A stretch of 64,000 nucleotides of DNA from Sedimentisphaerales bacterium (GTDB taxonomy: Bacteria > Planctomycetota > Phycisphaerae > Sedimentisphaerales > SM23-30), in assembly GCA_963666285.1 (NCBI GenBank), contig OY762711.1; one strand, given 5' to 3'. Position 1 is the first letter of the stretch. Each line of letters starts with the position of its first letter. Made by a program: the position numbers and the translations under genes. The notes under the pieces are model-generated. The model ran no database searches. It saw only the letters and a list, made by a program, of their open reading frames with translations, and was not told the DNA's origin. Shown here piece after piece: positions 1-22,580 of the stretch.

Positions 1-2993
1 ACACCAACTTTCCACGATTGGGCAGTTGGCGTCTTATCCATATTTATAGCCGTTAAATTACGTCCAGTAGGCACAGATTGCGGGTTGCCCAGCGGATCTC
101 CTCCAGAAGATGGGGCAATATAACCACCTGACAAGGCATTAGCTATGCCTGCCAACTCAAATTCGGTACAATCAAGCAATCCTTTTTCATAATCAGTAAC
201 AGACCTCAATGACTCTCGCAAATCACTAACAGCGTCAATATATTCTTTCTCATCAGCCTCTAACCGCTGAAGATGCTGCTTTACTACCCTAACTGCACGT
301 TCGAGATGCCCCTGCCCCAAACGCAGTATGGCTGCCACAGCCTTATTATCTTTGCCATCCTTCTGCTCGATTTCACCATGTAATTCGATATTATTTGCAT
401 AAAAACCCAAAACCTCAATATTCTGTTTTGTTGTTTCTTTATCCCACTTAGTAACAATATCTGCTAAGACTTTATCATTTGCTGTTGCAAATAACACAGT
501 ACTATTAGCAGGATCACAAGCCTTTGCAATTATCAACTGTTGATTCTCATTATTTTCAACACCTGCTGCGATACTATGCCTATTCTCCATATTTTCTTTA
601 ATCGGGCGGCCGGCTCTCATTGAATGCAATTTCTTTTCATGGTCTTTATTCCATGCTTCCAGCCGAAGAATATCTTCCTCTGGAAGAAATTCCTTCCAGC
701 TAACGTTACCAGACAGTATTTCATTTATAATAAGTTTAGCTTTATCCTTATAAACATTGACCTCAGATTCTTCACTATGGGCCGGTTGTGGGTTGCTGCC
801 GTTATTTGATTTTTCTTTAAGCTTATCAAGAACGGATAAGCTGTGAGCTACAGACTCTACTGCCATGAGCATAGCGGTTTCCCTGGCCTGCTCCGGCTCA
901 TACGACCTTCCCAATACATATAGTCCGCGAGTGATCTTTTCCTGGGCCAGTGAATGCAGATACACATGTATCTTTTCCAGCCGTTCGTCTGTCAATTCAC
1001 TTCCAGCAAAATTTTCCAGCTCCAAATCCTTATCCAGTTCAAGCTCGATTATACCCTGCCTGATACTATTGAGATACTCCGCCTTCAATGCCTCATCCCG
1101 GACATGCTCATATCCTTCAACTGCACTTTCCAGCTCTGACAGCGGCCCGTACAACTCAGATTCCATATAAGGCGGAGTAGTATGGGAAACAATAGCTGCA
1201 TAGCTCCTGCGCTTGGCGATTATCGCTTCACCTATATTATTAATCGTATATACATACGGATGCGGCAGTTCACCAACCAGGGCATCCGCCCAGTCCATAT
1301 CTGATAGAACATTTTGCTTCCACGGTGTAAACTCCAGTGAGCCATGCGTACCAAAATGTATCAAGGCATTAGCCTTAAAGCCTTTCCTCGCCCATAAATA
1401 TCCTGCAATATACGGATGTGGCGGGGCTTGTTTTACGCCATGAACAAGTTTGCTATGATCATCACCAATACCGGGCATAAGCTGGGGCAAAATCACAATA
1501 TTCCCAAACCTGACACGCGGCAATGCTATATATGACTGTCCATCAACCATTGACGACAGGTAATTGCCAGGTGCCGGACCATACTCAGCTTCAACCTGCT
1601 GGTACATCTCCGGCATGAGACTTTCCTGAACCCAACTTAGATAATCCCGGGTTCTAATCAATTCCGGCTGGCCATGCTCCAGGTATCTCTCAAACTCTCC
1701 CCTGGCATAAGGTCCTAGTACCGGGCCTTCATTCTGAATCCTATTTTCAAACTCCTTCACCGTTTCAGGTAAAACACCTGTATCATATCCCTGCTCTTTA
1801 AGATACCTTAGGACATTAAGAAGTGATTCTGCAACTTCCATCCCACTTGCCACAAGAGAGTTACGTCCCGGACCTTTAAAATAAAATATCGCAACCCTCT
1901 TTTCATTGTTTGGAATATTTTTTAATTTCAGCCAGTTGTCAACACGACTCACAAAGGTATCCATTCGATTTTCTATTGGCATAGATACCATCAAACCACG
2001 CTCGTCAGGATATTCAGCAGACACGGCAAATGGCTCAATTCCTCCATCCAGCTCCGGCATCACTATACTCTGGCTCAGCATACCGCCGGACATCCCGTTC
2101 TGACTATTCAACCATTGATCATACGGCTCATGTACATCAATCGGGCACAGAAGCGGAATATTCTGCTGTTTGAACCAATCAATGACAACATCGGTATTAC
2201 CCATCATATTCAACCTGCCATGAGGGAAATATACCGCAAGATCAGGTTTAATGTCTTTTATAAAATCCAACCACTTTTGAAAACCGGCAACAGGGTAGAC
2301 ATTTATATTCTTAGCTTCCAGCTTGTGGATAAGAGTATTTATTGTGTCACGCTTTGACGATCTTGGGCCTATAATTGATGTAAGTAAACATACCTTGGGG
2401 CCTCCTGCCTTGAACACTCCCTTTTCTTTATAGTATTTCTCATACTCTTCAACTGATGAATAGAAAGCATCCGTCTCCAAATGAAAAAGGGTATCCATTG
2501 GTATAATTTCAGCACCCTGCACTTCACTGCTAAATGCGGTTTTTCCATCAAACTCTACCCTGCAATAATTAAAAAGCCTGGCAGTGTTCTTTTTACCGCC
2601 ATTTTCCAGGTAGGATTCTACCTGTGCTATCTGCTCAGATGTCAAATTGGTAAACTGATCATCTTTGTTTGTAGATGAATGAATATATACCTTTGCACCA
2701 TCTTTTATACAGAATTTAATATGATCTGCCTGATGCTCATCAAGCCTTAGCCCCATACCAAATATAAGGGTCACTGCATAATCAGATAAATCCGTATCAG
2801 CAATTTCAGTTTTTTCCAGTCGATCTATTTTTATAAAGCTGCTGTCAAGCGAATCAAGCATCTGAGCATATTGAAAATCACGAAAATTGATTACAGCAAT
2901 ATGTGTGGCAGAAAAATACTTATTCCATACATACAGCAAAACCAATAATACTATTATTATGCCGGCAATTAGCTTGCGATTTTTTTTAATCAT
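1..2993 (-). CDS. cobN: CobN/Mg-chelatase H-family protein, HmuS-like (candidate heme de-chelatase); runs off the left edge
   Basis: Not in the ORF track because no stop falls in the window. Translation from the ATG at 2993 gives MIKKNRKLIAGIIIVLLVLLYVW (N-terminal TM anchor), then the CobN/BchH motifs MPELDGGIEP, ALIHFGTHGSLEFTPWKQ and GEAIIAKRRSYAAIVSHTTPP. It sits next to DUF2149 and MotA/TolQ genes, as in Bacteroidota hmu operons. Confidence 0.9.
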   Translation of the reverse strand, partial: MIKKNRKLIAGIIIVLLVLLYVWNKYFSATHIAVINFRDFQYAQMLDSLDSSFIKIDRLEKTEIADTDLSDYAVTLIFGMGLRLDEHQADHIKFCIKDGAKVYIHSSTNKDDQFTNLTSEQIAQVESYLENGGKKNTARLFNYCRVEFDGKTAFSSEVQGAEIIPMDTLFHLETDAFYSSVEEYEKYYKEKGVFKAGGPKVCLLTSIIGPRSSKRDTINTLIHKLEAKNINVYPVAGFQKWLDFIKDIKPDLAVYFPHGRLNMMGNTDVVIDWFKQQNIPLLCPIDVHEPYDQWLNSQNGMSGGMLSQSIVMPELDGGIEPFAVSAEYPDERGLMVSMPIENRMDTFVSRVDNWLKLKNIPNNEKRVAIFYFKGPGRNSLVASGMEVAESLLNVLRYLKEQGYDTGVLPETVKEFENRIQNEGPVLGPYARGEFERYLEHGQPELIRTRDYLSWVQESLMPEMYQQVEAEYGPAPGNYLSSMVDGQSYIALPRVRFGNIVILPQLMPGIGDDHSKLVHGVKQAPPHPYIAGYLWARKGFKANALIHFGTHGSLEFTPWKQNVLSDMDWADALVGELPHPYVYTINNIGEAIIAKRRSYAAIVSHTTPPYMESELYGPLSELESAVEGYEHVRDEALKAEYLNSIRQGIIELELDKDLELENFAGSELTDERLEKIHVYLHSLAQEKITRGLYVLGRSYEPEQARETAMLMAVESVAHSLSVLDKLKEKSNNGSNPQPAHSEESEVNVYKDKAKLIINEILSGNVSWKEFLPEEDILRLEAWNKDHEKKLHSMRAGRPIKENMENRHSIAAGVENNENQQLIIAKACDPANSTVLFATANDKVLADIVTKWDKETTKQNIEVLGFYANNIELHGEIEQKDGKDNKAVAAILRLGQGHLERAVRVVKQHLQRLEADEKEYIDAVSDLRESLRSVTDYEKGLLDCTEFELAGIANALSGGYIAPSSGGDPLGNPQSVPTGRNLTAINMDKTPTAQSWKVG

Positions 2994-2997
2994 TATT

Positions 2998-3342
2998 CTA
3001 CTTACTTTCCTCATGCAAAGTTTCCGGAACATATATTATCTGCCCGTTATCTAATTCATAGGCAATTCCAATACGCCTGCCCTGGCCTTCACCCTGGCCC
3101 TGGGCTGCTTTGTATTGGGTAATTTCATTGCCCTTTTTAACAATTATCTCCATATCGTCTTTACCGGGATTTTTAACCATGGTAACATCTTCCTGGGTAA
3201 ACATCTCTGTCATCTTAAAATTTACCACCATAGCAACCATTAATGCTACCGCAAATACCATGGCAATATCAAAAAGATTTGCCATGCCGGACAACGGATC
3301 ATCATCATGATCATCAAGCACAAAGACATTTTTTCTTTTCAT
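2998..3342 (-). CDS. DUF2149 family protein (HmuV-like)
   Basis: DDDPLSGMANLFDIAMVFAVAL...VKNPGKDDMEII...GRRIGIAYELDNGQIIYVPE. Start placed at MKRKN (3342). Confidence 0.88.
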   Translation of the reverse strand: MKRKNVFVLDDHDDDPLSGMANLFDIAMVFAVALMVAMVVNFKMTEMFTQEDVTMVKNPGKDDMEIIVKKGNEITQYKAAQGQGEGQGRRIGIAYELDNGQIIYVPETLHEESK

Positions 3343-3934
3343 TTCGCTGCTCCTGTGATAATTCAAATAAATATGCCAATATCGCATAATCTCTTTTGCT
3401 CCATTGACTTTTAGTCAATTGAACAATAAAACCGACGCCTCCGATAAATACACCTATAACAGTTGTTGAAAAAGCCACCTGCATATTGGTTGCCATTGAT
3501 GCTATATCACCAGAAGCAAGACCGGCCAATGCCGGCCCCATAGGAATAAGCGTTCCCATCAGACCAAGCATCGGACCGGTCCGCATCAAAGTTTTTGGCA
3601 TCTTCAGTTCATCACCGACAGCAATTTCAAAGTCACTCAACACCTTTGCCCCATGAATGGAATGCCAGTCACATTCAACTAATTTCTTAACATGACCGGA
3701 AAATAAATCCTTGTGCTGGATAACATTACCATAATCCAGTTTTTCTACAGGATTATCGGCTGCTTCAGCCAGCAATCGTCTTACGTGTTTACTCCATCGT
3801 AATCTGACAGCATAATGTCCGTATAAATCGCCAAGCATCAATAACGAATATCCTAAAGCTATCAAAATTAAAACTATGACCGGGATCATCATCCCGGAAG
3901 ATATCCAGTATAATAGAGTTGTCAATATATTCAT
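3314..3934 (-). CDS. MotA/TolQ/ExbB proton-channel family protein (HmuU-like)
   Basis: GPMLGLMGTLIPMGPALAGLASGDI...MQVAFSTTVIG signature; overlaps the DUF2149 gene. Confidence 0.9.
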   Translation of the reverse strand: MNILTTLLYWISSGMMIPVIVLILIALGYSLLMLGDLYGHYAVRLRWSKHVRRLLAEAADNPVEKLDYGNVIQHKDLFSGHVKKLVECDWHSIHGAKVLSDFEIAVGDELKMPKTLMRTGPMLGLMGTLIPMGPALAGLASGDIASMATNMQVAFSTTVIGVFIGGVGFIVQLTKSQWSKRDYAILAYLFELSQEQRNEKKKCLCA

Positions 3935-3940
3935 TTACTT

Positions 3941-4642
3941 TTACTCCTGAGAAGCAGTTTTAACATAACTCGATATAAAAATTCTTATAAAATACGCTGC
4001 TACCAAAATAATAGTCATAGCCGATATGCAAAAAATGAAATCCCGACCCAAGTTGTGATCATATGAATTAGCAATGCTCATCCTTCCACTGACAATCAGC
4101 GGCAAAAACATGGCAATTACGATTTGAACAAAAGCAAGAATCAAAACTATATCCAGCCTGAATTGCCAGCTTAACACAACAAAACGCAGCAGTAGATGAA
4201 ACAATAAAAGAGCAATCAGGGCTCCCGCCAATGACACAAAAGCAAGCAGCCCTAATTGCCAGCCGGATATACAGTTCAACATATATACCAGCCCGATATA
4301 CAAACCTATTATTCCACTGACAGAAGGACACATTACAATAATTTTACTAAAAGTCACCTTCTTATTATTTGAATGATCTGCCAAAAGCCTGGCTGCTAAC
4401 AGTAATATTGAAACAGACTCCGCAATAACAATAATTCCAACATTTACCAGGCTGTCATAATTATTCATAAAGTCAGTTACATCCTGGATATTCATTCTAA
4501 TAGCAGCAGAATACATGCTTCCTACTGCAAGAATTGTAAAAATAACAGCAAGACAGCCATTCAGTGTTTTTTCAAACAGACTAAACTTTATTGCCATATT
4601 TATTGTGCCTGCAAACAGCAGAATAACTAAAAATAACCACAT
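3941..4642 (-). CDS. Polytopic inner-membrane protein (HmuT-like by position)
   Basis: About 7 hydrophobic segments; lies immediately upstream of the hmuU/hmuV-like genes. Confidence 0.65.
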   Translation of the reverse strand: MWLFLVILLFAGTINMAIKFSLFEKTLNGCLAVIFTILAVGSMYSAAIRMNIQDVTDFMNNYDSLVNVGIIVIAESVSILLLAARLLADHSNNKKVTFSKIIVMCPSVSGIIGLYIGLVYMLNCISGWQLGLLAFVSLAGALIALLLFHLLLRFVVLSWQFRLDIVLILAFVQIVIAMFLPLIVSGRMSIANSYDHNLGRDFIFCISAMTIILVAAYFIRIFISSYVKTASQE

Positions 4643-4669
4643 AACTCTGTACCTTGCTCAAATATTTCT

Positions 4670-5611
4670 TTAATTCCTGCCTACTATATGAAGATAATCT
4701 GATATGGAAGAGTCAAAACATCTGTATTTATCATGTGTAATAGTAATATTCCTGCTCATAGCTTTCTCTTTTTTACTCATTACCAGATTACCGCTATCAC
4801 TTAATATAATTATCCTCTCATTAGTACCAGGCATTCTTCTTTGCAGTCTGGCCGGCGTTCCGGCACTATGCATAACATGGCCAGAACCGCAAATGACAAC
4901 AGATACCACATTATCAACTTTATTGTCATTTATCGCAGCTGCCAGCGAATCAGCCATAGTTTCATCCCGGCAAACCTGCGCTGCATACATCCTTTCCAGC
5001 ATTCCCTTATCATCTCTCACGTGAGCCATAACAAACATTAGCTCCTTCAGATACTTTTTATACGGACTCTCAGAAAAGTCTAGATCGTCAGGAAGCTCGG
5101 CCCGTTCTTTTTCACTCAACTTTTCAATGCCAAACCGTGCAACAGACCTAACGATCTCTTTTCCGGCATTCAATCCGATAATCTTACCACCGGAATCATG
5201 CACTGCTTCCACAATATCACGATAATCCAGATAGTTACTCCACATTGAGGGCCAATCCACTTTAGCAGCCAATGTGTCAAAATCTATTTCGCCACGATTG
5301 TATTTATCAATTACCGGTTGAGACCGTCTTTCCAACTGCTCCATACCTAATATGATTTGTTTACCTTTATCTGCCAGACTCATAACTATTTCAAGCTGAA
5401 TCTCATGATGAAGGTCTATTGTATGCTTCTCTCCAAGATATATTACATCCGCAGTTGAAATATCAGTTATCATATCTGTATAAGACACCGGCTCACCACG
5501 ATATACATCAACCCATGTATCACATTTTGAATTGCACAACCCTCTCATATTACACCCCGAAGAAAACATAACCAATAAAGACAATAACTGTATATACAAA
5601 ATTCTTTTCAT
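4670..5611 (-). CDS. ChaN-family (heme-binding, EreA/ChaN fold) lipoprotein
   Basis: Lipobox FSSGC after MKRILY; motifs DVIYLGEKH, LGMEQ, AQVCRDETMA, VICGSGH. Confidence 0.85.
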   Translation of the reverse strand: MKRILYIQLLSLLVMFSSGCNMRGLCNSKCDTWVDVYRGEPVSYTDMITDISTADVIYLGEKHTIDLHHEIQLEIVMSLADKGKQIILGMEQLERRSQPVIDKYNRGEIDFDTLAAKVDWPSMWSNYLDYRDIVEAVHDSGGKIIGLNAGKEIVRSVARFGIEKLSEKERAELPDDLDFSESPYKKYLKELMFVMAHVRDDKGMLERMYAAQVCRDETMADSLAAAINDNKVDNVVSVVICGSGHVMHSAGTPARLQRRMPGTNERIIILSDSGNLVMSKKEKAMSRNITITHDKYRCFDSSISDYLHIVGRN

Positions 5612-5682
5612 TTCCGCTTCTTTCAACTTACGAGTAATATATTTTTGACAATATTCAATAGCAAATACTACCAGCCGACATT

Positions 5683-6495
5683 TCAATAACCAGGCCCCCA
5701 TAAAAGTCTGTTTTCTTCTGAATCGGGTAAAGATAATTCCTCCCAATACATATAATTTTGACTTTTAAGAGTGTCAGGGGCTTCAACTTTTTCCGCATCT
5801 ATTCCTTTAACTCGTTCAACATGACCGTCTACAAACATGATATTCATGCCATTATTATGATAAAAACCACTGGTATAGCGATGATGCCCTTGATAGTCAG
5901 GATTATACTTTTTAAGCTTTTTGTTATACATATCATAAACCTGGCCATAATAGCTTGTCTCCATCATAAGCATACATTCACTGCCAAAACGAATCTGGCT
6001 TATCTTGTACCCGCCTGCCGGGCCAAACTTCAGTTCAGGGCTACTGCCGGACCAGCCACTACCGGATGATGCTACCTTATGATACCCATTCATCGCATAG
6101 CTGGTATATTTTTGACCATGCGGCGACAAACCTAACGGATACGGGTCTTTATCAGACGGGCAAAACCATAATTCCGCGGGTTCTTCAAATGAACCTTCCA
6201 AGTCATTTTTATTTTCACCAATATACGGCAGCAAAGACCATATCCACGGTTCACTGCCTTCATCGTCAGACATCACCAGCCGGGCTGTTGGAATCTGGTC
6301 GTCATTATCAATAGAGTAGGTATTAAAAGCCACCGATATCTGTTTCATACCAGAAGCACACACAATTGCCCTCGCCTGCCCTCTTGCCTTATTTAAAGCA
6401 GGCATTAATATTGACACCAGCAATGCAATAATCGAAATCACTACCAGTAATTCAATCAAGGTAAAGCCGCTCTTTTTTATTTTATCTACCATCAT
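5683..6495 (-). CDS. Prepilin-type N-terminal cleavage/methylation protein with H-X9-DG motif (DUF1559-like)
   Basis: GFTLIELLVVISIIALLVSILMPAL; WFCPSD; HNNGMNIMFVDGHV. Confidence 0.92.
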   Translation of the reverse strand: MMVDKIKKSGFTLIELLVVISIIALLVSILMPALNKARGQARAIVCASGMKQISVAFNTYSIDNDDQIPTARLVMSDDEGSEPWIWSLLPYIGENKNDLEGSFEEPAELWFCPSDKDPYPLGLSPHGQKYTSYAMNGYHKVASSGSGWSGSSPELKFGPAGGYKISQIRFGSECMLMMETSYYGQVYDMYNKKLKKYNPDYQGHHRYTSGFYHNNGMNIMFVDGHVERVKGIDAEKVEAPDTLKSQNYMYWEELSLPDSEENRLLWGPGY

Positions 6496-6530
6496 CTAAA
6501 GCACCTGTTTTCTATGACAACTAATCATTT

Positions 6531-6697
6531 AGGGTACTTCTAGAAATTGCTTTTGTTGCGAAAGTGAGGAGTTTTGTTTGCCGGCAAGAAAGATAAAATC
6601 GTGCATGCATATTGGCCATATTCGCGGTTTTATCTGACGCAGATCAGCAAGCAAAAGATCCATCTTTCGCTAAAAATGAATTTTTAGAGGTGTCCTT
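6531..6697. repeat. About 167-bp palindromic MITE/REP-like element
   Basis: Terminal inverted repeats AGGGTACTTCTAGAAATT / AATTTTTAGAGGTGTCCT match at 14/18 positions, and the mismatches are G-U compatible. Nested inner stems: GCGAAAG/CTTTCGC, TTTTGTTTGC/GCAAGCAAAA, AGATAAAATCGTG/CGCGGTTTTATCT. Confidence 0.75.
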
Positions 6698-8213
6698 TAT
6701 ATATATAATTCGACTTCATTAGCCACATTTGCGACAATCTCGCTATATCAGACTGATCAACATATTCACTTCCATCGCAATCCCCTGCCAAACTATCAGC
6801 ATCCAGTAGCCAGTTATTAGAAATAATCGCAAAATCAATCAAGTTAACATAACCATCCATATCAATATCTTCTGTATAACGCAACGGTCCCTCCGGCAAG
6901 TCAATATCCAATGCCGTAAAAACTGAAACAGAATCAAGCCATGGCTCGTCACCAGAAATAACAAAGCCTGCCTTGACTAGACCCGGATTTTTATCAAAAC
7001 GAAATACTTTAGTCGTTCTATACCAGGTATTCTCATACTGGCCGTTGCCGATCTTATGAACTTCAAAATCAAGTGGAGTAATGTCAACCGCACCGTCAAC
7101 TAAAATATTAACATTTCCGCCATCATACCAGTCACACTGAACAAGAACTGTCAGTTCTCCAGACTCAGAACCGGTCGGGATTGTTGCGGTCAACTCATAT
7201 TCCGAATATGAAAGTGCACTATTATACGACCCCGAACTGTTGGGATCTCTAAACACCCCTCCGTATACTCCATCCACCCATGCAGGCTGATAATCATTTG
7301 GCTCTGACTGATCCGGAAACGGATGCCAGGCCAAAAACGGGTTAATCACATCCACTCCATTAAAATCTAACTCCTCCTGCCAGACTATATTTGGATCACC
7401 ATATTCATTCTCTACTTTGCCATCCGGAAGCATCCCCTGATCACACCGCCCTGCACTGGCACTCATAAGCCATTGCTGATAAGTACATCCTGCCTTGTCC
7501 TCCATGGAAGGAACCCACGCATCACCAAAACCATCTTTTTTCTCTGTTATTATTAATGCAGGCGTTATCGAATGCGGCTTAGGAATTACCCCAAGCTCAT
7601 CTGCCGAACTGGAATAAAAACCCGTATGCTGGTTATCATACGAATTTAAAGCCCCTTCATCCTCTCGACCGGTTATTGCTATACCAAGATTTTCCAGGCC
7701 GTCAGAACCGTCAGATTGCTTATACAAAATCCATTGATTAACCAGCTCGGTTACATCCCAGTAACAAACACCGTCCTGATATACCATAACACTGCCATAG
7801 GAATTAAGTATATGATTTTCTTCAACATAAAATTTCTTAGGTGATACCTTTCCATTTTTTATTTCCATAACATCCAGATCAACATTATGAACAGTTACCT
7901 TTATAGGCCTGGACGCACCACTACCCATACTCCCCGCAGGCCCTGACACCATCTTCAGCCATGCGCTGCCAACAGTATCATCTGGCAATTCGCCGGAATC
8001 AATCCTGATAAACAGCAATGTTTCATAACTTACCGGCCCATCACCAAAATCCAGCTTGGCATATGCATTAGATGTCAATAAATAATCACGCCCGGAAAAC
8101 ACATACTGCGACATTGGTGTATAAAAGTCACAATCAACTTCTATGGCATAAGAAGCCATGCAGCTAACTCCTGCCAGCATTAAAACCAGCATACCTTTTA
8201 ATATATTATCCAT
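6684..8213 (-). CDS. Secreted protein: DNRLRE/CBM96-like N-terminal domain, unknown middle domain, C-terminal dockerin-like repeat
   Basis: Signal peptide; WDVTELVNQW...NLGIAI...FYSS...PALII pattern; tail DIDMDGYVNLIDFAIISNNWL...GDCDGSEYVDQSDIARLSQMWL. Confidence 0.75.
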   Translation of the reverse strand: MDNILKGMLVLMLAGVSCMASYAIEVDCDFYTPMSQYVFSGRDYLLTSNAYAKLDFGDGPVSYETLLFIRIDSGELPDDTVGSAWLKMVSGPAGSMGSGASRPIKVTVHNVDLDVMEIKNGKVSPKKFYVEENHILNSYGSVMVYQDGVCYWDVTELVNQWILYKQSDGSDGLENLGIAITGREDEGALNSYDNQHTGFYSSSADELGVIPKPHSITPALIITEKKDGFGDAWVPSMEDKAGCTYQQWLMSASAGRCDQGMLPDGKVENEYGDPNIVWQEELDFNGVDVINPFLAWHPFPDQSEPNDYQPAWVDGVYGGVFRDPNSSGSYNSALSYSEYELTATIPTGSESGELTVLVQCDWYDGGNVNILVDGAVDITPLDFEVHKIGNGQYENTWYRTTKVFRFDKNPGLVKAGFVISGDEPWLDSVSVFTALDIDLPEGPLRYTEDIDMDGYVNLIDFAIISNNWLLDADSLAGDCDGSEYVDQSDIARLSQMWLMKSNYIYKGHL

Positions 8214-8232
8214 GATACATTTCCTGTATATT

Positions 8233-8265
8233 GCCGCCCCCTGCTATTGTAAAGCAGAGAGCGGC
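8233..8265 (-). other. Intergenic stem-loop after the PEP-CTERM gene (possible mRNA-stabilising hairpin)
   Basis: GCCGCCCCCTGCT...AGCAGAGAGCGGC imperfect inverted repeat with no clear U-tract. Confidence 0.45.
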
Positions 8266-8285
8266 TATAATTTTATTGCCTATGT

Positions 8286-8975
8286 TTATTTACGCCTTCT
8301 CAACGCAGCCAAACCGCCAAGCCCCAGCATCGCCAGTGTAGCAGGCTCTGGTACTGTAACGTCTGAAATATACGGCACAACTCCATCTGCACTGCCAAAA
8401 CTGGCAAACTTCGCTCCGGCACTGGAAAGGATAAGACCATTATTAACTCCACCTGCAGCCCAAAGATTATAAATATCAGTTATTTCAACACTGCACAATC
8501 CTTCGGCGTCAACAATCAATGTCGCTATCGGGGAAAGTGATAATGTCGCATCTTTCACCGCTGCTAAATCTGACTGAGTTGAAACACCTCTGACAAGAGA
8601 TGCCACATCGGAAGGAGCAGCATATACATCTAAGGTGTAGGGAAAACCAGAAGAACCCATTCCACCGGAAACAGGCAGCTGATCCAGAACCAGATAAGCA
8701 GAAGTTGCTGCCTCACTGCCGCTGCTGAATTTCACCCAGGCAAAACCCCACATATCTTCACCGTTCGCACCGCCATCCAATGGCTGAGTCAAAAAATAAT
8801 CCTTTAGATTACTTGTTGAATCAGAAGTATTTGAATACAAACCCATACCACCTCCCATAAAAGTATAGCCGGTTACCTGGCAATCTCCTTCAAGAGCAGC
8901 AGCACTAACACCTGTTACAAAAGACAACATACTTGTCAAAATCGCAGCCAACATCATAAAACATTTCTTCTTCAT
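8286..8975 (-). CDS. PEP-CTERM surface protein, homologous to the N-terminal domain of the next gene
   Basis: Signal peptide; C-terminal VPEPATLAMLGLGGLAALRRRK. Confidence 0.92.
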   Translation of the reverse strand: MKKKCFMMLAAILTSMLSFVTGVSAAALEGDCQVTGYTFMGGGMGLYSNTSDSTSNLKDYFLTQPLDGGANGEDMWGFAWVKFSSGSEAATSAYLVLDQLPVSGGMGSSGFPYTLDVYAAPSDVASLVRGVSTQSDLAAVKDATLSLSPIATLIVDAEGLCSVEITDIYNLWAAGGVNNGLILSSAGAKFASFGSADGVVPYISDVTVPEPATLAMLGLGGLAALRRRK

Positions 8976-9008
8976 TTTTTTCTCCAGAATAAAAAATTAT
9001 CTTCTTTT

Positions 9009-9031
9009 TATGTTTTCACTGTGAAAACATA
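9009..9031. promoter_or_regulatory. Perfect 11-1-11 palindrome, candidate operator
   Basis: TATGTTTTCAC-T-GTGAAAACATA, about 35 bp upstream of the PEP-CTERM start. Confidence 0.45.
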
Positions 9032-9060
9032 GCACATATTCATTCAGCAAAATCGTGCAC

Positions 9061-9116
9061 AAAAAAAAAGGAGCAACAGATACTCGGCATTTAATACCGT
9101 TTTATCCATTGCTCCC
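9061..9116 (-). terminator. Long hairpin plus U-tract inside the operon leader (intrinsic terminator/attenuator)
   Basis: Minus strand reads GGAGCAA-TGGATA-AAA-CGGTATT-AA-ATGCCG-AG-TATC-TG-TTGCTCC followed by T9. Confidence 0.75.
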
Positions 9117-9171
9117 TTGCTGACTTATTTCGTTTGCTTGGTAGCTTGATTTATTTTAACTTATCAACTCA

Positions 9172-9336
9172 TTACTTATTCATTACCAGTTTCTCATTTT
9201 TTGTAATACGCAACCTGTATTGCTCCTCGTGATATCTGATTATTATTTCATTACTATCACCAAACAGTTCTTTAGCGTCATATTCCTTTTTCACTTTGCA
9301 GTTTTTTATATCAGTTTTTTTACTTGAGTTTTCCAT
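9172..9336 (-). CDS. hemP: Hemin uptake protein HemP/HmuP (54 aa, below the ORF-track cutoff)
   Basis: MENSSKKTDIKNCKVKKEYDAKELFGDSNEIIIRYHEEQYRLRITKNEKLVMNK*. It matches the HemP pattern LF...E+.I.H....Y.LR.T+..KL++.K. Confidence 0.85.
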   Translation of the reverse strand: MENSSKKTDIKNCKVKKEYDAKELFGDSNEIIIRYHEEQYRLRITKNEKLVMNK

Positions 9337-9394
9337 TTAGGACTATCCAATTTTTTAAGCTTATTTCAATTTACCTTCTGCTTGAAACTCAATA

Positions 9395-9835
9395 TCAGGC
9401 CACTATATTGTCGTATTCCTGCTTAAATTTCTCAATCAAATCAGTCGATTCAGATTGTATCATTTCTGTAAAGCACACCAACCGGTCAACTAACTCATCT
9501 CCAACATTATGTTCTACACGGCATGCCGCCTTATCTGCAATATCCTGACCAATTCCTAAAATATCTGTAAAAAAATTCTTAAGCACTTGATGTTTATGCG
9601 CTATAGAACTGGCACGCTTCATTCCTTCTTCAGTCAAGGTAATCAACTGGTATGGAGCATAGTTAATATATCCGGCCTTCTGCAGATTCTGTAATGCCCC
9701 GGTTACCGTTCCAGCTTTTACATTGAGACTCTCGGCAATATCTTTTGCCTGAGCAGCTCCTCTTCGGGTTACGGCAAAAAATATCGCCTCAAGGTAATCT
9801 TCCATACTCGCTGATATACTATGTTTTTTCTTCAT
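9395..9835 (-). CDS. DtxR/MntR-family metal-dependent repressor
   Basis: SMEDYLEAI, HTH (AKDIAESLNVKAGTVT), LTEEG...HKH...ACRVEH. Confidence 0.93.
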   Translation of the reverse strand: MKKKHSISASMEDYLEAIFFAVTRRGAAQAKDIAESLNVKAGTVTGALQNLQKAGYINYAPYQLITLTEEGMKRASSIAHKHQVLKNFFTDILGIGQDIADKAACRVEHNVGDELVDRLVCFTEMIQSESTDLIEKFKQEYDNIVA

Positions 9836-9871
9836 TTGTAACTCTTTTTAAGCTAGATTTAACGCCCCATA

Positions 9872-9904
9872 TAAGGCACAGCTAATAATGTAAGGCTAGT
9901 CTAA
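9872..9904. promoter_or_regulatory. Tandem DtxR-type operator candidates upstream of dtxR
   Basis: TAATGTAAGGCTAGTCTAA (9886-9904) matches TWAGGTWAGSCTWACCTWA at 16/19. Related cores are TAAGgcacagCTAA (9872-9885) and TTAGgactatCCAA (9337-9350, abutting the hemP start). Confidence 0.6.
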
Positions 9905-10115
9905 CTTTTTTTCAAGAGAAAAAAACAAAATTTCATAAAAACTCTATTATTTTATCTATACAGAACTAAATCTTTCTCTCCCCCCCCCCCCCATTTCTGA
10001 CGCTCAAATAGCGCACTTCTGATCTGACTTTTTTATAGGGTGTTAATATGGGTAGAGTCACACTACTTTGTATAGTTCTTGTCTAATTGTTAAGACAGGA
10101 GGAGTCCAGTGCCTA

Positions 10116-15784: not shown

Positions 15785-17017
15785 TTAATTATGTAAATGC
15801 AATTGCGGGCTCTTATCATCAGCGATCCTGATCAGCTTGTCAGGATTTTGATATTGAGCCACGAGATACCGAGTCAAATCAACCTGCATGCCTTCAATTG
15901 CCTTGAGATAGTTGACCTTTTCGTTATTTGTCGCCTGCAGGTGCTTAACTTCTTCGGCATTAGCTGCCTGCAGATACCGCAACTCTAATTCATTACTATT
16001 CTGCTTAGCGGCCAGTTCACATTTCTGCTCGGCTTCCAGCTTTCTCAAGGTCTCTTCATGGGCAAGCTTTTCCAGTTTGAGCTTATGCTGCTGACTTTTC
16101 TGCTCCATTTCCTGTTTTTGAAGATCTCGCTGGGCCTCCCGCTGCAGCTTCAGGTCTGCCAGTTCCTGTGCCTGGGATTCGGTTTCGGCTTCAAGTTTCA
16201 GCCTAGTCCTGGTTTCGATAGCGTTATTATGCATTTCCTGAAGCTTGTCATTTGCCTTGTAGCCGCGATATACCACCTTGTTGATCTTATAACCGATCCG
16301 CTGGGCACGATAGTTAAGATTTTCGAAGGTTTCCAGCTTATTCAGCTGTTCAATATGCTGCTTGAACCCTTCAAAACTCAGGCCACTGACAAAATCAATT
16401 ACATCAGCTGAGACAGCATTAATGAAATCTGCAATTGGATCGTGGGTCTGGTCCAGCATCTTTTCGACTTCAACCAGTTCGAAAAAGATCATCAGCTTAA
16501 CCTCTACCAGGGCATCGTCACTGGTTCGCACCCTGCTGACATCGTAATACATCTGGTCGGGTATGGTACGCAGCCTGGAAAAGTTTAATGCTCGTGGTAT
16601 CTTGCGATACGGATCTTTGGGATCAGCTCCATGCCAGCTGAATTTATGCAGCCATTCATTTTCGCAAGGCACATATACAGCAGGCCCGCTCAACACCCGC
16701 CTTGCAACAGTTTCATCGGTTCTTTTATAAACAACCACGGCTTCATGTGAGTTGATCGCCAGAGCCTGCTTGACGTCTATTTGCTTATGGTGAACCGGAT
16801 CGTACCAGACCGCAGCCGGTCCCGCTATATTTTCACAGTGACCATCCTGATATTCAACTGCCAGATACTGCTCAGAACCGGCACTGAAATGAACCATATC
16901 CTGAATGGTACGATCATAGATAAACATCCGTCTCGGGCCGTCTACAAATTCAACTTTACCTTTTCTATCCCACACAGCAATCCGCTGTCCATCTTTAACT
17001 GTAACAAAACCAAACAT
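15785..17017 (-). CDS. Short major-vault-protein-like protein (3 MVP-type repeats, SPFH/shoulder domain, coiled coil)
   Basis: Three roughly 40-aa repeats, each containing GP; a shoulder-like PDQMYYDVSRVRTSDDALVEVKL...DPIADFINAVSADV...SFEGF; a long E/Q/K-rich helix; no TM segment. Confidence 0.7.
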   Translation of the reverse strand: MFGFVTVKDGQRIAVWDRKGKVEFVDGPRRMFIYDRTIQDMVHFSAGSEQYLAVEYQDGHCENIAGPAAVWYDPVHHKQIDVKQALAINSHEAVVVYKRTDETVARRVLSGPAVYVPCENEWLHKFSWHGADPKDPYRKIPRALNFSRLRTIPDQMYYDVSRVRTSDDALVEVKLMIFFELVEVEKMLDQTHDPIADFINAVSADVIDFVSGLSFEGFKQHIEQLNKLETFENLNYRAQRIGYKINKVVYRGYKANDKLQEMHNNAIETRTRLKLEAETESQAQELADLKLQREAQRDLQKQEMEQKSQQHKLKLEKLAHEETLRKLEAEQKCELAAKQNSNELELRYLQAANAEEVKHLQATNNEKVNYLKAIEGMQVDLTRYLVAQYQNPDKLIRIADDKSPQLHLHN

Positions 17018-17031
17018 AACTTACCTCAATT

Positions 17032-17970
17032 CTATTGTTGATAAATACGTTCATAAAGCTGATTAGCCAGCGTATCAATATAACCAATTCCTTTTGGCCC
17101 ATTTTCACACATATCAATAAGATGTTGCGGGATAGCTTGTATCCCTAAATGAGTTCCGCATATAGCACCTGCCATAGCAGCAACCGTATCAGTATCATCA
17201 CCTAAGGATATTGCACGGCCAATTACATTCCCATAACTGTCCGGCTCAATAGAAAAGCAGGCAATAGCGGTAACAACTGAACGGTGAGCTTCCAAAGAAC
17301 TTCCCAATGATGACAGCAGTGTATTTCCAAGTTCAAGATTTTCGGCAACAGACAAAAGCCAGTGATATTCTTCTTCTGAAACATAAGTTTTCAGGTCATC
17401 ATAAAATGCTTGTCTATTAAAAACAGGTTCACGGACCATATGGGCAATTGCTGCGGCAATAAGAACAGCACCTTCAATACCTAAAGGGTGAACATGAGTT
17501 GGAGCAGCTGACAAATATACTTGTTCTTTAAGTTTTTCTTTATCATTGCTAAACATAAGCCCCAGCGGAGCTACTCGCATGGCAGCTCCATTACCATAAG
17601 AACCACCAGGAAAAAGGGTATTGGTAAGAGTTTGCCAATCGCCGCCAGTAGCCATAGCGTCAAGGATCTTTCTGCAACCTGCACCATAACCTCGATTTTC
17701 TTCGTAGTTACTCACAAAGTTATTGCATAAAGTTTCGGTTACGATCTCACCATGTTCAATCAATGTCTCAGCAACACTTATCATCATTTGAGTATCATCA
17801 GTATAGAACAACTCTTCGACCGGTGGTTTGGCTACAATATCTTTACCAAGCCCGAAAGAGTCATATATTATACCAGATGAAAGCCCCTCAAAAGGAGCTC
17901 CAATGGAATCACCTACCGCAAGGCCAAGAAGACAGCCGCGAAATCTTTCAAGTTTTGTTGGAGTGTTCAT
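17032..17970 (-). CDS. ADP-ribosylglycohydrolase (DraG/ARH family)
   Basis: GLAVGDSIG, YTDDTQM, GNGAAMRVAP, DDTDTVAAMAG. Confidence 0.93.
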   Translation of the reverse strand: MNTPTKLERFRGCLLGLAVGDSIGAPFEGLSSGIIYDSFGLGKDIVAKPPVEELFYTDDTQMMISVAETLIEHGEIVTETLCNNFVSNYEENRGYGAGCRKILDAMATGGDWQTLTNTLFPGGSYGNGAAMRVAPLGLMFSNDKEKLKEQVYLSAAPTHVHPLGIEGAVLIAAAIAHMVREPVFNRQAFYDDLKTYVSEEEYHWLLSVAENLELGNTLLSSLGSSLEAHRSVVTAIACFSIEPDSYGNVIGRAISLGDDTDTVAAMAGAICGTHLGIQAIPQHLIDMCENGPKGIGYIDTLANQLYERIYQQ

Positions 17971-18020
17971 AGTTCTGTCCAATTCGCTATTTATTAATAT
18001 ACAATGACAAAATTCATAGA

Positions 18021-19112
18021 TTAAATATTTATCGCTTTTCTTAAGCTCGTAGGCAACGCTCTTAATGCTATATGTCCAAATACTATAAGTGCCATAAAAA
18101 CATTCCTGGGTATTATGGCAGGCCAGAAGTATTTTACAGGTTTACGGCCTGAGCTCTCATCAGCAAGCTTTTCCGCCGCCTGACATAACACGTTAACAGT
18201 GCGCGGATATTCTAGAATATTAGCTATCCATTCTTTTGGTATGCCATCTTCACCAACGGTTGCCCCGGCAAGAGCTCCGGTAATAGCACCAACAGTATCT
18301 GTATCACCACCAAGATTTAATACAGCGGTAAGTGTTGCTCGATAATCTCCATAATGCCTCAGCCAGGCATAGATTGCAACCGGTACAGTATGGTATATAT
18401 AGCCCGTAACTCTGTCGCGAAGCTCTAACTCTTTTGCAAATCCCGAAACAGTCATGCCGCTATCGAATGAATTCCCCATATTCTCTACAATAGTTTGCCA
18501 TTCCGGATCGTTATCAATACTCCTCAGCAATTCAAATAGTTCTTTACTATTCGGCTTTCTGCTATCATTTGAGATGGCAACTGCCGCTGTGTAACTAATT
18601 GCCAGTGCACCTGTCATGGCACGTGGGTCAGTATGGGTCAGCTCGGTAGAAGCTTTGGTATATTGATATATTATATTTCTATCATTTTTGAAATATGCCC
18701 CTATAACGGCACATCGCATTGCCGGGCCGTTACCAGCAGTATATATACCTGACTTTGACAATGGTAAAAAGAACCATAGTTTCAGGATTGCACGCAACGT
18801 GCCAAGCCCGATACCTGCCGGGATACCCAGCAGCCAGAACCGAAGCTTCCAAGCCAGTGACTTTTTGAAACTCTCAACATTATCAGCATGAGCAATAAGT
18901 GCCTGAAAGACAAATAGTGTATGTTCGGTATCATCGCTAACCATACCTTTTCCAAAGAAGAATCTATGCTTCCACTCCTGCCAGCCAAGCCTGGCAATGA
19001 TCGTGGCACTGAGATTCTCAGCAGGCAGACCAATCGCATCACCAACGGCAGTGCCGAGGATGAGTCCGCGTAGTTTATTATTTGTCATGTTATTGCCCTT
19101 AGCATTTTCCAT
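18021..19112 (-). CDS. ADP-ribosylglycohydrolase (second, divergent subfamily)
   Basis: GTAVGDAIG, SDDTEH, GNGPAMR, GGDTDTVGAITG. Start is at 19112 or 19088. Confidence 0.92.
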   Translation of the reverse strand: MENAKGNNMTNNKLRGLILGTAVGDAIGLPAENLSATIIARLGWQEWKHRFFFGKGMVSDDTEHTLFVFQALIAHADNVESFKKSLAWKLRFWLLGIPAGIGLGTLRAILKLWFFLPLSKSGIYTAGNGPAMRCAVIGAYFKNDRNIIYQYTKASTELTHTDPRAMTGALAISYTAAVAISNDSRKPNSKELFELLRSIDNDPEWQTIVENMGNSFDSGMTVSGFAKELELRDRVTGYIYHTVPVAIYAWLRHYGDYRATLTAVLNLGGDTDTVGAITGALAGATVGEDGIPKEWIANILEYPRTVNVLCQAAEKLADESSGRKPVKYFWPAIIPRNVFMALIVFGHIALRALPTSLRKAINI

Positions 19113-19117
19113 AAATA

Positions 19118-19732
19118 CTACATCCTTTGAGCCTGGCTTATAATAACTCCTGCTTCTTTCATTTCTATTACAGCCTTCTCGCAATCGCCCGGGCTTAATT
19201 CTACACCTCGGCAACCATCTAAGACAACAGTTGTCTGGTAGCCAAGAGAGACAGCATCAAGAGCAGAGAATTTTACACAATAGTCTGTTGCCAGGCCAAC
19301 AATGCAAACTTCATCTACGTCCTGAGCTTTCAGATAATCATCCAAGCCAGTTGATTTCCGGCGGGCATTGTCAAAGAAGCAGCTATAGCTGTCTATATTA
19401 GGGTCGGTACCTTTGTGAATAATTTTGTTAATCTTATCGACATCCAAACCGGCTGCAAATTCTGCTCCACCGGTTTGTTGAACGCAGTGGTCAGGCCATA
19501 GTATCTGCTGCAAGCCGTCAAGTTCTATCAGATCACCTATATTTTTACACTCATGCTGGCTGGCGAATGATTTATGCCCGACTGGATGCCAGTCCTGGCT
19601 GGCAACTACCAGATCATACTTATCCATTAAAGCATTTGCTACCGGAACAACTTTATCACCATCGGTTACTGCTAACGCACCACCGGGGATAAAATCATTT
19701 TGAATATCTATAAGTATCAATACCTTTTTCAT
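19118..19732 (-). CDS. pncA: Nicotinamidase/pyrazinamidase
   Basis: IDIQNDF, QDWHP..H, WPDHC, GLATDYCV. Confidence 0.95.
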   Translation of the reverse strand: MKKVLILIDIQNDFIPGGALAVTDGDKVVPVANALMDKYDLVVASQDWHPVGHKSFASQHECKNIGDLIELDGLQQILWPDHCVQQTGGAEFAAGLDVDKINKIIHKGTDPNIDSYSCFFDNARRKSTGLDDYLKAQDVDEVCIVGLATDYCVKFSALDAVSLGYQTTVVLDGCRGVELSPGDCEKAVIEMKEAGVIISQAQRM

Positions 19733-19748
19733 TTTCGTAACTCTCTTT

Positions 19749-20438
19749 CTATATTTCAAAATTAAAACCCTGTTTAACCAGCTGGTCATATTTCTTTTTA
19801 TCGAAACTGTACAAACGGGCAGCACGATGCGATACATCAGTTTCAATCTCGTCAAGCTCTTTAAGGATGTCCATACTCAGTATCTTTTTCCTGAAATTGC
19901 GTTTATCCAGTTTACGATCCAAAACCTGCTCGTATAAATTCTGCAGCTGACGCAGGGCAAACTTGTGCGGCAGCAATTCAAAGCCGATCGGCTGATAACG
20001 AACTTTGCCGCGTAATCTTTCCAGGGCAGTAGATAATATCCGGTCGTGATCAAAGGCAAGAGCGGGTATGTCTTCCAGGGCAAACCATGCTGCCTTGCTG
20101 GCATCTGTTGCCGCCTGGACCTTATGATCGACAAGATTGACAAGAGCATAATGCGCTACTGTCACAACATGCTCTCTCGGATCGCGATCTGCCTCGCCAA
20201 AGGTATACAGCTGCTCCAAAAAGATATCCTTCACACCTGTTTCCTCCATAAGCTCACGACGAGCGGCATCTTCCGGAGATTCGCCAACATGGACAAAACC
20301 GCCTGGCAAAGCCCAGCTCCCGGCATAAGGTTCTAACGCCCTCTGGATAAGAAGTATTTTCAGTTCATCTTCATCCAGGGCGAATACCACACAGTCAACT
20401 GTCAGTGCCGGTCTTGCATATTCGTATTGAAAGCTCAT
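19749..20438 (-). CDS. nrtR: NrtR, ADP-ribose-responsive Nudix-wHTH repressor
   Basis: Nudix box WALPGG...[19 protein letters not shown], then the w[13 protein letters not shown]...ARLY. Confidence 0.93.
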
Positions 20439-20476
20439 ATACTGTTCCTTTAATCTCTAAATTTACAAATCAAAAC

Positions 20477-20524
20477 TTAGTGTCTCATTTACACTATTAT
20501 GGTGTCAAAATTACACTATGTCAA
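20477..20524 (-). promoter_or_regulatory. Sigma70 promoter overlapped by two tandem NrtR boxes
   Basis: TTGACA (20524-20519)-N17-CATAAT (20501-20496). Boxes ttagtGTctcatttACactat (20477-20497) and atggtGTcaaaattACactat (20499-20519) carry the GT-N7-AC NrtR core. Confidence 0.85.
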
Positions 20525-20589
20525 ATTAAAAAATTATCTCTATCCATAAAATTAAACTTAAACATTTTAACATCAACCACTTAAAGTAA

Positions 20590-22551: not shown

Positions 22552-22580
22552 AATACACCTGCTAATATACAAACTTATAT

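Follow-up and report, generated by a model that had tools for sequence, protein, structure and literature searches.

The subject of this report is a gene cluster at the left end of a 64,000-nucleotide stretch of DNA from a Sedimentisphaerales bacterium (Planctomycetota; contig OY762711.1 of assembly GCA_963666285.1). The whole stretch is called the window below and corresponds to G000:C1:4896001-4960000, G000 being the source genome. The cluster is probably an iron-repressed heme-iron operon, in which an enzyme of the HmuS clade and the hmuTUV genes stand behind a front module, the predicted substitute for HmuY and HmuR in heme capture. Heme is very likely the substrate of the operon, and the front module is likely to act in its capture; passage of heme through the outer membrane, driven by a pilus or pseudopilus, is put forward tentatively.

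Organization and boundaries of the operon

Ten genes were found on the minus strand in the order dtxR-hemP-PEP-CTERM-dockerin-pilin-chaN-hmuT-hmuU-hmuV-hmuS (coordinates in Table 1), just as an earlier sequence-only reading of the window had listed them. That reading had seen neither HmuY nor a TonB receptor, and had named beforehand a receptor just downstream as a test against a pilin route of import. In the genome sequence, the hmuS open reading frame (ORF) runs complete past the left edge of the window and is the last gene of the operon, and the next five long ORFs lie on the opposite strand (convergent). Because the complete hmuS ends the operon and opposite-strand ORFs come next, the operon has no linked TonB receptor or HmuY; none was found in the operon or on either side of it, including the genome beyond the left edge. 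Prepilin-like genes make up about 1% of the ORFs of G000 (53-61 of 5098) and the hemP-PEP-CTERM-dockerin-pilin-chaN order recurs in five other genomes of the same taxonomic order (see below), so that the arrangement is not due to chance. The ChaN-family protein is likely a lipoprotein with its start at the ATG at 5611, as judged from the signal and Cys in its sequence.

Identity of the chelatase

The window chelatase was placed by tree and by residue mapping in an alignment of 69 chelatases, with L098 (1463 amino acids, hmuYRSTUV gene order) as the reference for the numbering of PMC12583661; L050, a split gene, was excluded from the tree. Its best match in the PDB was HmuS (9d26, 1217 bits), against 366 bits for ChlH and 344 for CobN. 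In the phylogeny, which the sequence-only reading had proposed as a check on its cobN-like gene, the protein grouped with Bacteroidales HmuS to the exclusion of CobN, BchH and the other CobN-like clades (FastTree support 1.0, 68 sequences); the HmuS clade that includes it had a Shimodaira-Hasegawa-like approximate likelihood-ratio (SH-aLRT) support of 100 (31 sequences).

Thirteen of the 16 HmuS residues given as conserved in the available text of PMC12583661 are kept (M79, G80, H254-G-R, Q299, H506, H538, S1067, S1199, W1202, H1209 and E1212), among them both heme ligands and both catalytic His. M93, H271, H563, H1233 and E1236 of the window protein correspond to M79, H254, H538, H1209 and E1212 of HmuS. 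The head/neck heme site is thus retained as M93, G94, H271-G-R and a Gln (Met79-Gly80, His254-Gly-Arg and Gln299 in HmuS), and the motifs HFG(T/A)HG (at 559) and LSLDHxxEFMGG (at 1229) are present. The same text uses conserved residues, a working set at 50% identity and a Met-rich insert in domain IV to define the family; since the window protein departs from the last two, it is named HmuS-clade here.

The locus resembles the Bacteroidota hmuYRSTUV locus (PDB 9D26; PMC12583661, in the part available) in its enzyme with two membrane anchors, in the heme-site and catalytic residues and in its hmuT-, hmuU- and hmuV-like genes. It differs in having no HmuY and no HmuR, in the order TUVS, in an insert that is not Met-rich and in an identity of about 42%, and also in that dtxR, hemP, two surface protein genes, a pilin-like gene and chaN precede. 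A true cobaltochelatase or Mg-chelatase was ruled out: with CobN and BchH/ChlH the protein shares the PF02514 superfamily and the HFG(T/A)HG motif, but it is 24-26% identical to them, falls in a separate clade, stays below every NCBIfam cut-off (best, CobN, 643 bits against 1248) and has no cob or bch neighbours. De-chelation of heme of the HmuS type is quite likely its activity. HmuS was found in none of 60 relatives and in three of 400 other genomes of the class, one of the three being of a distant type; the main text of PMC12583661, as far as available, mentions no planctomycete, and its supplement may list planctomycete sequences.

A second chelatase clade, without the LSLDH motif, alternates likewise between pilin and receptor (L092, L051 and L064 against L065, L054, L059 and L060). 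A 3242-residue protein (L072:652-10377) ends in a chelatase, about 2000 of its other residues having no family label, and at L062, L063 and other loci long ORFs without family label adjoin the chelatase.

The front module in relatives and its heme back ends

A profile of the dockerin-tailed protein detected full-length orthologues in five other genomes among 301, and relatives of the second domain in four more. In all five (L200-L204, from the same taxonomic order) hemP, PEP-CTERM, dockerin-tailed, pilin and chaN follow one another in unchanged succession, with dtxR, feoB or flavodoxin genes close by. Four of the five genomes gave no chelatase match in the search of 60 relatives. After chaN, four of these loci carry genes for a fusion of a HutW-like radical SAM enzyme with an energy-coupling factor (ECF) S-component, and for ECF T/AA, flavodoxin and PNPOx-like proteins (two of the four are broken by a contig end or lack the later genes), and the fifth carries a CbiX-like protein. 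The HutW-like enzyme had TIGR04107 as its best model, with 305 bits against a cut-off of 400; families of this block were scanned on L200 only. The operon had been called a mosaic, and this is correct, with the join in another place: hemP, PEP-CTERM, dockerin, pilin and chaN form one order-wide block to which hmuTUVS is attached. On these gene orders, the front block is older than the join, and one front end is paired with exchangeable heme back ends.

HemP and ChaN occur in proteobacterial hemP and Campylobacter chaN heme-uptake loci. Those loci share the two families with the operon but include a TonB receptor, whereas the operon has, in that context, a pilin-like gene and a box of the DtxR family. 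In Fusobacterium, HmuW and a flavodoxin take part in the anaerobic breakdown of heme (PMC10404700, as far as available). The front module of the relatives likewise precedes a HutW-like radical SAM enzyme and flavodoxin, as in HutW/ChuW/HmuW operons such as hmuTRUVWF of that source; in the relatives, unlike those operons, it forms one protein with an ECF S-component, ECF T/AA is used and no TonB receptor is linked, and the window lacks the block.

The block at L200:631-5798, with similar ones in L201, L202, L203, L207 and L208, encodes the fusion of HutW-like radical SAM and Trep_Strep ECF S-component, an ECF T, a double ATPase, flavodoxin and a PNPOx-like protein, and is a candidate heme-importing ECF transporter joined to a degrading enzyme. 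Further triplets of PEP-CTERM, DUF1559 and dockerin genes lie beside Fur/DtxR and feoB genes in the same islands (L203:16-7005, L207:2436-4836 and L201:14633-17072), which suggests parallel modules for other metals. In G000, a cobalamin riboswitch heads two PEP-CTERM genes, a dockerin-tailed gene and a DUF1559 gene, without btuB (L233, G000:C1:5171613-5176683), a layout that parallels the heme locus. A second one precedes a lone PEP-CTERM protein (L234, G000:C1:5844030-5845205), which we take to be DUF4465-like (no family match in the scan), and a third, at C1:4033170, precedes what are presumably nrdD/nrdG and metE.

The pilin branch

The window pilin is a prepilin-like protein of the DUF1559/H-X9-DG kind, with the N-methyl cleavage motif, the DUF1559 segment and the C-terminal H-X9-DG all present; 361,327 cluster representatives match the profile of this family at E<=1e-3 (0.001). 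The best eight candidates of each of 301 genomes were scored, and at least 28 matches at E<=1e-30, the window pilin included, were found in 25 genomes. All 27 non-self contexts were read. Heme-handling genes adjoin the pilin in 21: in nine cases hemP and/or a heme back end (six HutW-ECF, one CbiX-like chelatase, two hemP only), in 12 ccsA and/or resB. The other six have neither, and five of them carry a surface protein of the type seen in heme loci. An intact, co-oriented TonB receptor was seen in none of the 27.

The 26 branch proteins form a clade (FastTree 0.996; SH-aLRT 85.7, or 96.5 when the hmuS-linked pilins of L004 and L049 are counted in); L216 and L223 fell out of the tree at trimming. 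C46, C112, H126, H204, R206 and H213 are invariant in the alignment of the 26. An H-H/Y-R...H motif is found in 25 of them and in none of 42 paralogues from G000, and in 19 of the 21 top library representatives against one of the next 129. For the DUF1559 protein, the sequence-only reading had offered heme as a substrate hypothesis; it has become stronger than could be seen from the window, and holds for this branch. The pilins linked to HmuS in Planctomycetia belong to a branch of their own, so that the link between pilin and HmuS arose more than once.

A 'tetrapyrrole clade' uniting the G000 pilin behind the B12 riboswitch with the heme branch (FastTree 0.911) was absent in IQ-TREE and was dropped; that pilin groups with the pilins of L012 and L096 (SH-aLRT 93). 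In L210-L226, a block of resB-ccsA, a dockerin-tailed protein of about 285 amino acids and a heme-branch pilin recurs, three times beside feoB; external heme is possibly used there for cytochrome c assembly.

Surface proteins

The dockerin-tailed protein consists of an N-domain like CBM96 (a carbohydrate-binding module)/DNRLRE with invariant M34, M96 and H109, a second beta domain with invariant H297, and a dockerin-like tail (alignment of 13). The domain of the PEP-CTERM protein is homologous to this N-domain (hhalign 96.9%), and two Met stand at matching places in eight of nine PEP-CTERM homologues and in all 13 N-domains. Met/His heme ligation occurs in other hemophores, and the conserved residues may ligate heme here also. 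For the dockerin-tailed protein, Atlas gave CBM96 at 0.83 (a lead only), and the sole coherent Foldseek match was an alginate-binding module (7vbo). Its alignment-based fold had a predicted local distance difference test (pLDDT) score of 56, with both Met loops below 50, so that the model does not support closeness of the Met in space; the single-sequence fold had a pLDDT of 29.5.

Regulation

The 19-bp near-palindrome at 9891-9909 ranked second among 6.15 million positions in a leave-one-out matrix scan, the matrix being derived from three further sites close to dtxR genes. Like boxes stand upstream of a dtxR-feoA/feoB operon, of a third dtxR gene and of locus L004, and the operon is likely iron-repressed. 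The promoter matches at 9 of 12, and shuffled sequence yields matches of this kind at least as often; the operator matrix gave no wider regulon above background, shuffles having 51 hits at 13.5 bits. No riboswitch was matched by Rfam in eight loci including the window region (L016 was excluded for its size). The label dtxR used before stands for the family only, as the MntR model scores above the DtxR model (81 against 35 bits).

Pilin or TonB receptor

DUF2149 matches were found in 46 of 401 genomes of the phylum, and 36 loci were taken from the 50 DUF2149 places listed. Five have a co-oriented DUF1559 gene and 18 a co-oriented TonB receptor; one has a divergent pilin, one a divergent receptor, seven have neither and four have no chelatase. 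Pilin and TonB receptor were together in none of the chelatase loci examined. The 26 HmuS-clade loci outside Bacteroidales (window included; assigned by tree or by at least 44% identity) comprised 13 pilin-linked (three near-identical), seven receptor-linked and six neither or truncated. In the tree, pilin-linked HmuS-clade genes belong to five or more lineages, with receptor-linked ones in between. G353, 100% complete on one contig, has an HmuS-clade gene and DUF1559 and no PF00593 match, which is lacking also in G338, another pilin-type genome. In the sister HmuS-clade locus L010, the receptor exceeds the heme-receptor cut-off (TIGR01785, 433 bits). G000 has seven secretin and 13 PilB/PilT-type ATPase matches, plus prepilin-peptidase matches.

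Because hmuTUV travel with HmuS, and loci of the HutW and CcsBA types lack them, the HmuUV motor is more likely to act on the de-chelatase than on a receptor; this differs from the scheme in Fig. 1B of PMC12583661 (available text), where the motor energizes the receptor. Receptor loci (L010, L058, L073, L074 and L078) often carry a separate exbB/tonB in addition to hmuUV. Matches to DUF2149 occur in Methanosarcina as well, and where a front module stands without HmuS, hmuUV are lacking too. For L004, L008 and L009, the record titles (Ignavibacteria, Kuenenia) clash with gene content or tree position, and mis-binning or transfer is possible.

Proposed pathway and alternatives

When iron is short, the DtxR-family repressor would leave its computed box, and the operon and feoB would be expressed. 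The PEP-CTERM and dockerin-tailed proteins would bind heme at the surface through their conserved, paired Met/His. In the weakest step, the DUF1559 protein would mature like a pilin, become part of a type IV or type II fibre, pick up heme with its His cluster and carry it through a secretin to the periplasm. ChaN, to judge by its family, would ferry periplasmic heme; membrane-anchored HmuS would remove Fe(II) and leave protoporphyrin IX, with the HmuUV motor and HmuT likely helping, by homology; and FeoB, as the shared operator suggests, would import the iron. Heme uptake and de-chelation had been proposed from the window alone, and the HmuS clade, the lack of a riboswitch at the locus, the operator shared with feoB and the front-module orthologues beside unrelated heme enzymes back this proposal. 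Imported heme might also be used intact in G000, which has hemB, hemC, 48 CxxCH proteins and a ccsBA pair and gave no PF00762 ferrochelatase match in the late heme pathway.

Several observations weigh against the reading of the cluster as a heme-capture operon with a receptor-free front end. In the ChaN-family protein, an Ala aligns (with 2g5g) with the Tyr that we take to be the heme ligand of C. jejuni ChaN, an assumption for which no paper was found. The surface domain resembles the carbohydrate-binding module CBM96 and not HmuY (low confidence), L004 and L049 carry other surface proteins, and the regulator is nearer MntR than DtxR, with both scores far below the cut-offs. In the chelatase, the cleft residues F502, S1014 and Q1198 are changed (four kept of F502, H506, S1014, S1067, Q1198, S1199 and W1202), the domain IV insert has two Met against 22 at similar length (165 against 170 amino acids), and identity to L098 is 42% (46% over trimmed columns), below the 50% bar in the available text of PMC12583661. 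Some HmuS-clade members adjoin CbiK and a Btu-type ABC transporter (L012, L014 and L016), so that heme as the substrate does not follow from membership of the clade by itself. Among the pilin and receptor loci counted, kin are no separate cases, and a single family, with another chelatase type, supplies 11 of the 18 that have a receptor; the ccsBA locus L211 has a weak, truncated receptor fragment that diverges at the contig edge.

Heme might instead enter through an unlinked TonB receptor or a porin, the pilin-like and surface proteins only binding, concentrating or buffering it in a hemophore-like manner. This is rather unlikely, yet some observations would fit it: G000 has seven unlinked TonB receptors (TIGR01785, 41-115 bits) and one exbB-exbD-tonB set, all five module-bearing relatives tested keep one or two receptors, three of five other pilin-type genomes (G163, G600 and G441) have a PF00593 match, and the operon itself has neither secretin nor ATPase. 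Profile scores cannot exclude the G000 receptors as heme suppliers, because a genuine HmuR also misses the TIGR01785 cut-off (176 against 317 bits). Those receptors, however, have no DtxR box over threshold and no iron or heme neighbour in the contexts read; G042 and G050 have a single receptor match of about 1030 amino acids, a size found also in four of the five relatives and in G000, and G353 and G338 have none; and pilin and receptor share none of the chelatase loci examined. The operon could also handle another metal or tetrapyrrole (Mn, Co, corrinoid or siroheme), with a chelatase that inserts or swaps metal instead of harvesting iron. The MntR-like regulator, the Met-poor insert, the CbiK, ABC transporter and URO-D genes, or the COG0523-like GTPase genes, of some HmuS-clade loci and the grouping of the B12-riboswitch pilin with those of L012 and L096 agree with this, but HemP and ChaN in the operon, the absence of a locus riboswitch, the retained heme-site residues and the orthologous front module ahead of HutW-like and CcsBA genes make it improbable.

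With 12 of 27 orthologues beside ccsA/resB, one of them next to a multiheme cytochrome, and with a conserved His cluster that could hold a resident heme, the branch might be devoted to display or maturation of heme proteins rather than to uptake, either as a fibre that bears heme or in the assembly of cytochrome c, with only a secondary link to iron operons. We hold this to be quite improbable: the closest orthologues (360-420 bits) all lie with hemP, chaN and genes for heme-degrading or chelatase-like proteins, in the vicinity of dtxR, feoB or flavodoxin, the branch alignment has no CxxCH motif, and several ccsBA loci adjoin feoB. That the surface proteins serve as anchors which bind carbohydrate, with the pilin as a bystander and only hmuTUVS and chaN concerned with heme, is very improbable in view of the block being kept with hemP across families, the branch-specific conservation of His and Met and the 21 heme-linked contexts, although the fold is CBM96-like and 16 of 45 pilin-like genes of G000 have a PEP or dockerin neighbour.

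Features and neighbouring genes

Table 1. Features of the operon, with positions in the window
Feature	Position	Strand	Evidence
Sigma70-like promoter (-35 at 9915-9910, -10 at 9892-9887) with DtxR/IdeR-type operator 9891-9909 in the spacer	9887..9915	-	
DtxR/MntR-family metal-dependent repressor, 146 amino acids	9395..9835	-	PF01325 and PF02742; MntR 81 bits, DtxR 35 bits, both below cut-off
HemP, 54 amino acids	9172..9336	-	PF10636, 45.4 bits (cut-off 25)
PEP-CTERM surface protein with one CBM96/DNRLRE-like domain, conserved M40 and M106	8286..8975	-	PF07589
Dockerin-tailed exported protein, 509 amino acids	6684..8213	-	PF00404, weak NF033679
Prepilin-like DUF1559/H-X9-DG protein	5683..6495	-	PF07963, PF07596, TIGR02532 and TIGR04294 over cut-off
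ChaN-family protein	4670..5746	-	PF04187, 189 bits; match to 2g5g, E 8e-12
HmuT-like inner-membrane protein, eight transmembrane segments (about eight hydrophobic segments by hydropathy)	3941..4642	-	No Pfam match; homologous genes fill the hmuT position in Bacteroidales and other loci
HmuU, MotA/TolQ/ExbB family	3314..3934	-	PF01618
HmuV, DUF2149	2998..3387	-	PF09919, 119 bits
HmuS-clade class I chelatase homologue, 1490 amino acids, N- and C-terminal membrane anchors	1..3032, on to -1440 (G000:C1:4894560)	-	

The end of the operon is flanked, to the left of the window (G000:C1:4881061-4894303), by ORFs that read as integrase-, primase- and restriction/defence-like; the GC content of this flank is 0.38 against 0.43 for hmuS, and it is a possible integration site. 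Within the window, the minus-strand run at 15785-22572 presumably concerns salvage of nicotinamide adenine dinucleotide (NAD) or handling of ADP-ribose; we take its members to be an NrtR-like Nudix regulator, a nicotinamidase, two ADP-ribosylglycohydrolases, an RNA 2'-phosphotransferase and a Gln-dependent NAD synthetase.

Significance

The back end is of a known kind in a new phylum context, and the front end was not found in print: judged from titles and abstract openings, no published description of such a system (DUF1559 or prepilin with planctomycete heme uptake) was found. A 'fishing rod' hypothesis of pilus uptake has been proposed for polysaccharides in planctomycetes (Boedeker 2017, as cited in the available parts of PMC12078418 and PMC12673574). 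In both cases, pilin-like proteins are thought to pull a substrate into the periplasm; that hypothesis, in those parts, concerns polysaccharides and names no genes, whereas here a defined DUF1559 branch is tied to heme. More speculatively, DUF1559 pilin-like proteins may be substrate-specific tips of retractile pilus or pseudopilus import that replace TonB receptors in planctomycetes; the His-rich branch would be the heme tip, fed by bis-Met hemophores of the CBM96 fold and plugged into HmuS, HutW-ECF, CbiX-like and CcsBA back ends, with HmuUV serving the de-chelatase. The system would be categorically new if the pilus route holds.

The locus adds one orthologous pilin with four heme back ends, a His motif specific to its branch, bis-Met surface domains and a shared DtxR-type operator. 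HmuS-type anaerobic heme de-chelation would be extended beyond Bacteroidota, and the proposed role of HmuU and HmuV as receptor energizers is called into question, since both go with HmuS rather than with the front end for uptake. The standing idea of pilus uptake in planctomycetes becomes testable with a spectroscopically easy substrate, and in the very large family of DUF1559-type prepilin-like proteins, which has no known job, one branch gains a named putative ligand, candidate residues and four independent heme contexts.

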